Assembly: GCF_056712565.1 (NCBI RefSeq)
Contig: NZ_CM160072.1
Reading direction: 5' to 3' (one strand)
Length of the DNA: 64,000 nucleotides
In this document: positions 57,001-60,000 of the stretch, one piece after another
How the letters are laid out: each line of letters starts with the position of its first letter
Position numbering within the stretch: the stretch's first letter is position 1
Made by a program: the position numbers

Positions 57001-60000
57001 TCACCAGGCCACGGACGCGACCATTGAATTCTTTATTCATGGCGCATTGTGCGTGGCCTATTCGGGTCAGTGCTACATTTCTCATGCGCAAACAGGGCGT
57101 AGCGCCAACCGTGGCGATTGCTCGCAGGCGTGCCGTTTGCCATACACATTGAAAGACGATCAGGGGCGGGTGGTTTCCTATGAAAAACATCTGCTGTCGA
57201 TGAAAGATAACGATCAGACTGCCAACCTCGGCGCGCTGATTGATGCTGGCGTACGCTCCTTCAAGATTGAAGGGCGTTACAAAGATATGAGCTACGTGAA
57301 GAATATCACCGCCCATTATCGTCAGATGCTGGATGCCATTATTGAAGAACGTGGCGATCTGGCGCGCGCTTCATCAGGTCGTACTGAACATTTCTTTGTT
57401 CCATCGACGGAAAAGACTTTCCACCGTGGTAGCACAGATTATTTTGTGAATGCCCGTAAAGGCGATATTGGCGCGTTCGATTCGCCGAAATTTATCGGCC
57501 TGCCGGTGGGCGAAGTATTGAAAGTAGCGAAAGATCATATTGATGTTGCCGTTACCGAGCCACTGGCAAATGGCGATGGCCTGAACGTGATGATTAAACG
57601 TGAAGTCGTCGGTTTTCGTGCCAATACGGTAGAGAAAACCGGAGAAAATCAGTACCGCGTCTGGCCCAATGAAATGCCAGCAGATTTGCACAAAATTCGC
57701 CCGCATCACCCACTAAACCGTAATCTTGATCATAACTGGCAGCAGGCACTGACAAAAACCTCCAGCGAACGTCGGGTGGCGGTAGACATTGAACTGGGCG
57801 GCTGGCAGGAACAACTGATTCTGACCCTCACCAGTGAAGAGGGTGTCAGCATCACACATACGCTGGACGGGCAGTTCGACGAAGCCAATAACGCCGAAAA
57901 AGCAATGAACAATCTGAAGGATGGTCTGGCAAAACTGGGGCAAACCATCTATTACGCCCGCAATGTGCAAATTAATTTGCCGGGGGCGCTGTTTGTACCA
58001 AACAGTCTGTTAAACCAGTTCCGCCGTGAAGCCGCCGATATGCTTGATGCTGCGCGTCTTGCCAGTTACCAGCGCGGCAGCCGTAAACCGGTTGCTGATC
58101 CTGCGCCAGTTTATCCGCAAACGCATCTGAGTTTCCTCGCGAACGTATACAACCAGAAAGCGCGTGAATTTTATCATCGCTATGGTGTGCAACTGATTGA
58201 CGCGGCGTATGAGGCACATGAAGAGAAGGGCGAAGTCCCGGTGATGATCACCAAGCATTGTCTGCGCTTTGCCTTCAATCTGTGCCCGAAACAGGCGAAA
58301 GGCAATATCAAAAGCTGGAAGGCGACGCCAATGCAACTGGTTAACGGCGATGAAGTATTAACGCTAAAGTTTGATTGCCGCCCATGCGAGATGCACGTCA
58401 TTGGCAAAATCAAAAATCACATACTGAAAATGCCGTTACCGGGAAGCGTAGTGGCATCCGTAAGTCCGGATGATCTGCTGAAAACATTGCCGAAGCGAAA
58501 AGGGTAAAACGCCAGTTTTCGGGTTACTCACCACTCATCAAATCTGCATGATATTGCCTGCCGGGTAAGGTGTCACGCCGCATCCGGCAACACACGACTC
58601 AACGCTGTCCCGCTTCTGGTTTGCGCGATTTTTGCCAGTAAAAATGCTCGCGCAAACCTTCCGCCGACTCTTCCGCCACAGCACGCAATTCATCGCTGTC
58701 CGCTTCATGACGCAACTGATGATCCACATTCTTTACCCACATAAATTCATGTCCTTTGTGCCCTGCCATGAGTTGTCCTGAGAACAGTGCACACGTTAAT
58801 AAGACAACCGATAACGCCTTCGAAAACATCCCGCCACCTTTTTCTAACCTTTTGCCGCTATGATGCCGATCGTTTCTTGAGGTTATTATTCAGTTTTGCA
58901 AATTAGAGCAAAGAAATTCTGGAATCTTCCTTCCTGATTTTGCATTGCATTCTGCCGTTGCGGCGATTTAGTGCTATTTTCGAGCACATTACACACGGAG
59001 GTAAACTTCGCCATTAAATAGTCACGATCACTTTATTGAAGTGCCTTTGAGCGTCGCCTCTAAGGTATTGCTGTTTACAGTCAGAAATCACTCAGCAAGA
59101 GTTAGCCCGGCGAATTGGCAAACATAAACAGGAGATTACTCGCCTATTTAATTTGCACCATGCGACAAAAATCGACGCCGTCCAGCTCGCGGCTAATGCG
59201 CTTGGCAAAGAGTTATCGCTGGTGATGGTTTGATTACAGTTAATGAAAAGTTGTCATTTTTAACAACTGATATAGACTGCCGAATCATCTGCACATAATT
59301 ACGATTCGATAATGAAAAAATACCAGCAGCTTGCAGAACAATTACGCGAGCAGATTGCGTCGGGTATCTGGCAACCCGGCGATCGTTTGCCTTCGTTGCG
59401 TGACCAGGTGGCGCTTTCTGGCATGAGCTTTATGACTGTCAGCCATGCCTATCAGTTGCTCGAAAGTCAGGGATATATTATCGCGCGACCGCAATCGGGT
59501 TATTACGTTGCGCCACAGGCAATAAAAATGCCGAAAGCGACAGTCATTCCAGTCACACGAGATGAAGCAGTCGATATCAACACCTATATTTTTGATATGT
59601 TGCAGGCCAGTCGCGATCCGTCGGTAGTTCCGTTTGCCTCGGCCTTTCCCGACCCGCGACTTTTCCCCCTCCAACAACTAAACCGCTCGCTGGCGCAGGT
59701 AAGCAAAACCGCCACGGCGATGAGCGTGATTGAAAACTTACCGCCAGGAAACGTAGAACTGCGTCAGGCTATTGCTCGTCGCTATGCCTTACAGGGCATC
59801 ACCATTTCACCTGATGAAATTGTCATTACCGCCGGGGCGTTAGAGGCATTAAACCTCAGTTTGCAAGCGGTAACTGAACCGGGCGATTGGGTGATAGTAG
59901 AGAATCCTTGTTTCTACGGCGCGTTGCAGGCGCTGGAGCGGTTACGGCTGAAGGCGTTATCGGTAGCGACGGATATTAAAGAAGGGATCGATCTTCAGGC

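Follow-up and report, generated by a model that had tools for sequence, protein, structure and literature searches.

A degenerate hicAB toxin-antitoxin locus between yncJ and ydcR of Escherichia coli, with a widely shared 445-bp deletion and a strain-specific 11-bp deletion

The hicAB locus of E. coli K-12 (b4532/b1438) is a type II toxin-antitoxin operon encoding HicA, an mRNA interferase, and HicB, an antitoxin-repressor (PDB 6hpb and 6hpc). According to reviews, the N-terminal domain of HicB neutralises HicA, the HicAB complex forms by dimerisation of C-terminal domains, and the operon has two promoters: an upstream promoter, P1, which depends on Sxy and CRP, and a downstream promoter, P2, which is repressed by HicB and whose transcript begins at the hicA ribosome-binding site. 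Sondberg et al. (2019) gave the E. coli CRP-S motif and did not mention hicA. Pfam analysis of K-12 HicB revealed an N-terminal HicB_lk_antitox match, a domain with a partial RNase H fold, at residues 3-67 and an HTH_3 match at residues 88-134. In K-12 MG1655, hicA (58 codons) and hicB (138 codons) occupy a spacer of 938 bp between yncJ and ydcR.

Inactivated forms of hicAB also occur naturally. In the D7 allele (RG40_RS00140 and RG40_RS00135), a small deletion between short direct repeats disrupts the toxin only, and HicB is full length; this allele lies on a different haplotype from the locus described here and represents an independent event. The deletion, of 22 bp between TGCG direct repeats, frameshifts hicA in D7 (L005:852-1006, NZ_CP010150.1) and in 810 other genomes, and PGAP labels the affected hicA "mRNA interferase, frameshifted". 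Another form is the hicB pseudogene of phylogroup B2 (UM146_RS10130; EAS44_RS13370 in ATCC 11775). A preprint (10.1101/486399) states that "Phylogroup B2 lost ... hicAB", and a search for papers on hicAB in ExPEC strains returned nothing specific.

We analyzed a stretch of 64,000 nucleotides from contig NZ_CM160072.1 of assembly GCF_056712565.1, hereafter the window, in which the interval between yncJ and ydcR is the same chromosomal site as that of K-12 hicAB. On the left, rlhA (ydcP; 56504-58507, plus strand) is followed by yncJ, a 76-aa ORF on the minus strand (58599-58829) that forms an intact flank; its position is annotated as yncJ or DUF2554 family protein in K-12, UM146, and the type strain. 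The right flank is formed by ydcR, an intact 468-aa ORF on the plus strand (59312-60718), a label given at this flank in all genomes compared. The spacer between the two genes measures exactly 482 bp (58830-59311). An Rfam scan of positions 58400-59500 at E <= 1 placed no RNA family in this spacer or in the hicAB remnant that it contains. In the adjacent rlhA-yncJ spacer, a weak, sub-threshold match to naRNA4 was observed at 58559-58595 (25 bits against a gathering score of 59.5, E = 0.047), and this segment looks like a REP-type palindromic element.

Alignment with K-12 resolved the 456-bp difference in length into exactly two gaps, of 445 bp and 11 bp. The DNA kept in the window was approximately 97% identical to that of K-12, with 14 differences in 537 shared positions. 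The distal part of the yncJ-hicA intergenic region was retained (58830-59006, plus strand, equal to K-12 L001 2066-2242), colinear with K-12 and with four substitutions. The larger gap, which corresponds to L001 2243-2687 (equivalently 2242-2686), is one contiguous deletion, and its junction at 59006/59007 on the plus strand joins GGTAAA to CTTCGCC with a microhomology of 1 nt (C). The missing material comprises one half of a palindrome that precedes hicA, the entire hicA gene (located upstream of hicB and coding for the mRNA interferase of about 58 aa), the hicA-hicB spacer, the ribosome site and start codon of hicB, and HicB codons 1-60, which cover almost all of the N-terminal Pfam match. 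Because this single gap spans both hicA and the codons of the N-terminal domain, the toxin and essentially the whole neutralising domain were removed in one event, and the linker and the HTH were left.

The remainder of hicB was found on the plus strand in two pieces that are read in different frames. Fragment A (59008-59076), identified by translation and tblastn, represents codons 61-83 (SPLNSHDHFIEVPLSVASKVLL). In the three-frame translation, the frame from 58831 reads an arginine and a stop codon followed by TSPLNSHDHFIEVPLSVASKVLLFTVRNH and ends in a further stop; fragment A has no start codon, the in-frame TAA lies directly 5' of it, and the reading continues out of frame to the stop at 59125-59127. 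Fragment B (59075-59233), which holds the HTH_3 region, represents codons 87-138 with the TGA stop and is read in the frame from 58832, which ends with LQSEITQQELARRIGKHKQEITRLFNLHHATKIDAVQLAANALGKELSLVMV and the stop codon. A tblastn search with K-12 HicB matched residues 61-83 at 59008-59076 and residues 85-138 at 59069-59230 in different frames, and the joint E value of 1.3e-32 was far beyond chance. When K-12 HicA was used as the query, no match was found anywhere in the 64 kb of the window, and the best hit, attributable to chance, had an E value of 0.77. With the frameshift set aside, the remnant has two replacements relative to residues 61-138 of K-12 HicB. The unbroken B2-type remnant protein (HicB 61-138, 78 residues) matched residues 61-138 of chain B, Antitoxin HicB, of PDB 6hpb with an E value of 4e-43, and the window shares P103H and K127N with this query. 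Homology at the nucleotide level to a protein that has been characterised and crystallised settles the identity of the locus.

Only two start-bearing ORFs overlap the HicB-homologous DNA, and none exceeds 28 aa. One is a 28-aa plus-strand ORF with a GTG start (59041-59127), which runs out of frame; the other is a 26-aa plus-strand ORF with a TTG start (59153-59233), which covers the last third of the HTH domain and begins at the first start codon available in the frame of fragment B. No good Shine-Dalgarno sequence was apparent 5' of either start when the sequence was read by eye. The toxin-neutralising domain is essentially absent, the hicB start codon and codons 1-60 having been deleted, and the HTH DNA at 59075-59233 is present but out of frame with fragment A. 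Unlike K-12 hicAB, the window is without hicA, the hicB start, and codons 1-60, its palindrome is halved, and its frame is shifted at codons 83-86; it is unable to function as a toxin-antitoxin system. The original prediction had described a 482-bp interval that contains a start-less fragment from the middle of HicB, a C-terminal HTH in a shifted frame, and no HicA-like ORF, and each of these features was recovered. The HicB sequence on which it relied was accurate, and the alignment showed that K-12 hicB is not identical here. Its proposal that a DNA-binding-domain remnant of the antitoxin persists holds for the DNA but not for a protein, as the reading frame is lost ahead of the HTH and the ORFs are limited to 28 aa and 26 aa.

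The smaller gap is located at 59073-59076 on the plus strand and corresponds to the K-12 sequence TTAAATGCTTT, hicB nt 247-257, in codons 83-86. The deletion has three equivalent placements, which equals a 2-nt TT microhomology, and it adjoins a T6 run. The hicB frameshift is due to this 11-bp deletion, and the frame breaks ahead of the HTH; the frameshift described earlier is confirmed in the sequence, but it was not produced by the drift over about 80 nt that had been implied. None of the 5281 E. coli genomes with coverage of the site has the 11-bp deletion, each of them aligning with a gap at 80-90% identity, and an exact-match search of a metagenome contig collection for its junction returned zero matches. 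The 11-bp deletion is private to this strain. It distinguishes the window from the other B2 hicB pseudogenes. UM146 (L002:2009-2244) carries a separate 1-nt loss of T in the T6 run, within the same 11-bp segment, and its annotation reads "frameshifted". Two independent frameshifts at one spot were observed in closely related B2 strains, in UM146 and in this window.

The 445-bp junction is widespread. A 40-nt probe taken from the window detected it in 1087 of the 5426 complete E. coli genomes (20%), in 1055 of them at >=99% identity. This probe replaced an 81-nt probe (1100), which had joined half-matches in a few intact genomes such as strain 746. The carriers include UTI89, O25b:H4-ST131, Nissle 1917, ATCC 25922, CFT073-like clone D, APEC O1, UM146, and the type strain ATCC 11775; we take these named carriers, together with the APEC O1 and O1:K1:H7 relatives, to belong to phylogroup B2. 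One of the 1087 junction copies lies on a record classed as a plasmid, and broader probes gave 2-5 plasmid places; the plasmid-record copy could reflect a misassigned replicon or a chromosomal segment on a plasmid. PGAP annotated a hicB pseudogene, "incomplete; missing N-terminus", in eight carriers inspected, and a helix-turn-helix-domain pseudogene in a ninth, MS1657. The junction of the annotated B2 pseudogene is identical to that of the window, and the window has zero substitutions relative to ATCC 11775 over 537 aligned positions. The hicB pseudogene allele with the 445-bp deletion is already known and annotated, and the window adds only the strain-specific 11-bp lesion.

The surroundings of the locus were also compared with those of related genomes. 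Positions 50000-64000 of the window aligned to 14012 bp of O1:K1:H7/APEC O1-like genomes at 99.9% identity, the 11 bp being the only difference in length, and positions 25001-50000 were 100.0% identical to APEC O1, O1:K1:H7 APEC strains, and ATCC 11775. Across the surrounding 39 kb, identity to many O1:K1:H7/APEC O1-like B2 genomes was 99.9-100%. In strain MS20653 (NZ_CP082085.1), a 99.9% relative, an IS3-like IS1397 element is inserted within the 14-kb neighbourhood, and the match is in two pieces with a span of 15.4 kb.

A survey of related genomes for intermediate states of decay, as the original prediction had proposed, revealed a series from strain 746 through 18KM2445 and the typical B2 allele to UM146 and the window. 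Strain 746 (NZ_CP023353.1) is the closest intact haplotype found; its hicAB is intact and encodes HicA and HicB proteins that do not differ from those of K-12, and it has several variants in common with the deletion carriers. 18KM2445 (NZ_CP151004.1) carries the 445-bp deletion; the nucleotides of its remnant do not differ from those of 746, and the encoded protein sequence equals HicB 61-138. Both strains have the yncJ protein allele WP_000494241.1. Strains 746 and 18KM2445 look like a near pre- and post-deletion pair, which suggests either that the deletion arose on this haplotype or that recombination transferred the allele. Replacements in other carriers (ST131, ATCC 11775, A32, and MS1657) were K79N, G101S, P103H, A116V, K127N, and M137I. 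In this allele comparison of 13 sequences, the remnants in carriers showed six nonsynonymous and three synonymous changes, and three intact hicB alleles showed zero and ten, respectively; Fisher's exact test of remnant against intact hicB gave p = 0.003, and p = 0.028 for codons 61-138 only, in a small sample and with statistics that ignore phylogeny and recombination. The direction is clear: constraint was lost once the 445-bp deletion occurred, and the pattern fits neutral decay. The 78-codon remnant frame is still open in most B2 genomes, which could be read as weak conservation and is also expected of a pseudogene that is short and fairly young.

Upstream of the hicA start codon, K-12 contains an 18-bp palindrome with perfect 7+7 arms, GTAAACA-CTAA-TGTTTAC (L001 2237-2254), at a distance of 33-50 bp, and it is the only palindrome at the expected operator place. 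On the basis of the reviews, it is probably the HicB operator (hicO) in the HicB-repressed promoter P2. The 445-bp deletion begins inside the palindrome, and the window keeps only the left arm, GTAAAC (59001-59006). Since the palindrome is halved, P2 and its operator would have been destroyed by the deletion. The upstream promoter P1, which would lie in 58830-59006, may survive. Scans for consensus sigma-70 promoters and terminators gave nothing in the hicA-proximal spacer, and the same scans missed the published hicA promoters P1 and P2 in K-12.

Taken together, we consider it very likely that the region is a non-functional hicAB relic that arose in two steps, a 445-bp deletion followed by drift and an 11-bp deletion. 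In the first step, illegitimate recombination at a 1-nt microhomology removed 445 bp in an ancestor of phylogroup B2-type E. coli, taking with it at one stroke the right half of the palindrome, hicA, the hicB ribosome-binding site and start, and HicB codons 1-60. Joint loss of the toxin and the N-terminal domain of the antitoxin would be a harmless way to shed a toxin-antitoxin pair. In the second step, the remaining 78 codons drifted without selection, with amino-acid replacements gathering in different B2 sublineages, and in this genome a slippage-type deletion of 11 bp beside the T6 run shifted the frame ahead of the HTH. Presumably the locus can yield neither HicA, nor HicB, nor an HTH protein on its own, and its DNA would serve only as a spacer between yncJ and ydcR.

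The order of events was seen differently in the original prediction, according to which the module had been disabled toxin-first, hicA being inactivated before erosion left the DNA-binding domain of the antitoxin. Loss of this kind does exist at this locus, as the 22-bp deletion in hicA with an intact hicB is found in 811 of the 5426 genomes, but that allele sits on its different haplotype and has no lesion in common with the window. The window lesion is instead one 445-bp gap with a single junction common to all 1087 carriers, and one contiguous deletion that took the toxin together with the antitoxin N-domain leaves no staged order to be read. The nearest intact haplotype, strain 746, moreover encodes a full-length HicA identical to that of K-12. 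Any prior point mutation in hicA would have disappeared with the gene in the 445-bp deletion, so this allele could not reveal one. We regard toxin-first decay as very unlikely. It is also unlikely, though less markedly so, that an error of sequencing or assembly accounts for the 11-bp deletion and that the strain carries the standard B2 remnant. The deletion is unique among 5281 genomes, is absent from the metagenome contigs, and lies beside a homopolymer, and in UM146, whose assembly is older, the homopolymer at this position differs by 1 nt; these observations would fit an artefact. However, a loss of 11 nt with a clean microhomology junction is untypical of homopolymer error, and the remaining approximately 39 kb compared were essentially error-free against close relatives. 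Artefact or not, the hicAB locus is a pseudogene, and the conclusion is unchanged.

A further explanation is that the remnant has been domesticated as a stand-alone HTH regulator, extending from about HicB residue 72 or 81 to 138, translated from an internal GTG or TTG start, transcribed from the surviving Sxy/CRP promoter, and kept for its function. Most B2 genomes have an uninterrupted reading frame between codon 61 and the stop, the intergenic DNA farther upstream has been kept, and GTG occurs at codon 72 in 10 of the 10 deletion carriers examined and in the intact strain 746, and not in K-12 or D7; in addition, the C-terminal HTH of E. coli HicB is reported, in the account relayed by a review, to be a structurally stable dimerisation domain (Manav et al. 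2019). Against this, the window has lost the frame ahead of the HTH, UM146 lost it independently, and replacements fall in the HTH itself, with G101S at the apparent turn glycine and P103H two residues on. The ratio of six nonsynonymous to three synonymous changes is near the neutral expectation, neither GTG nor TTG is preceded by a convincing Shine-Dalgarno sequence, the presumed operator is cut in half, and PGAP calls no gene in any of the nine carriers inspected. Maintenance of such a regulator is extremely unlikely. The same weight, hardly any, is given to the proposal that the B2 remnant with an open frame (approximately 1000 genomes) gives rise to an orphan Xre-type HTH dimer through expression from the surviving Sxy/CRP-dependent upstream promoter. 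If this were true, the dimer might titrate or cross-regulate other HicB-type operators, and the strain of the window and UM146 would be secondary loss-of-function variants. This interpretation does not apply to the window.

Under the preferred explanation, a non-functional relic produced by two deletions, the interval 58830-59311 can be annotated as a hicB pseudogene (incomplete, frameshifted), with no gene to call. The series from 746 through 18KM2445 and the typical B2 allele to UM146 and the window makes a neat teaching case of how a toxin-antitoxin locus decays neutrally once it has been inactivated. These findings indicate that E. coli can do without chromosomal hicAB and is losing it along at least two independent routes, namely joint deletion of the toxin and the antitoxin N-domain, in 20% of genomes, and a frameshift of the toxin only, in 15%.
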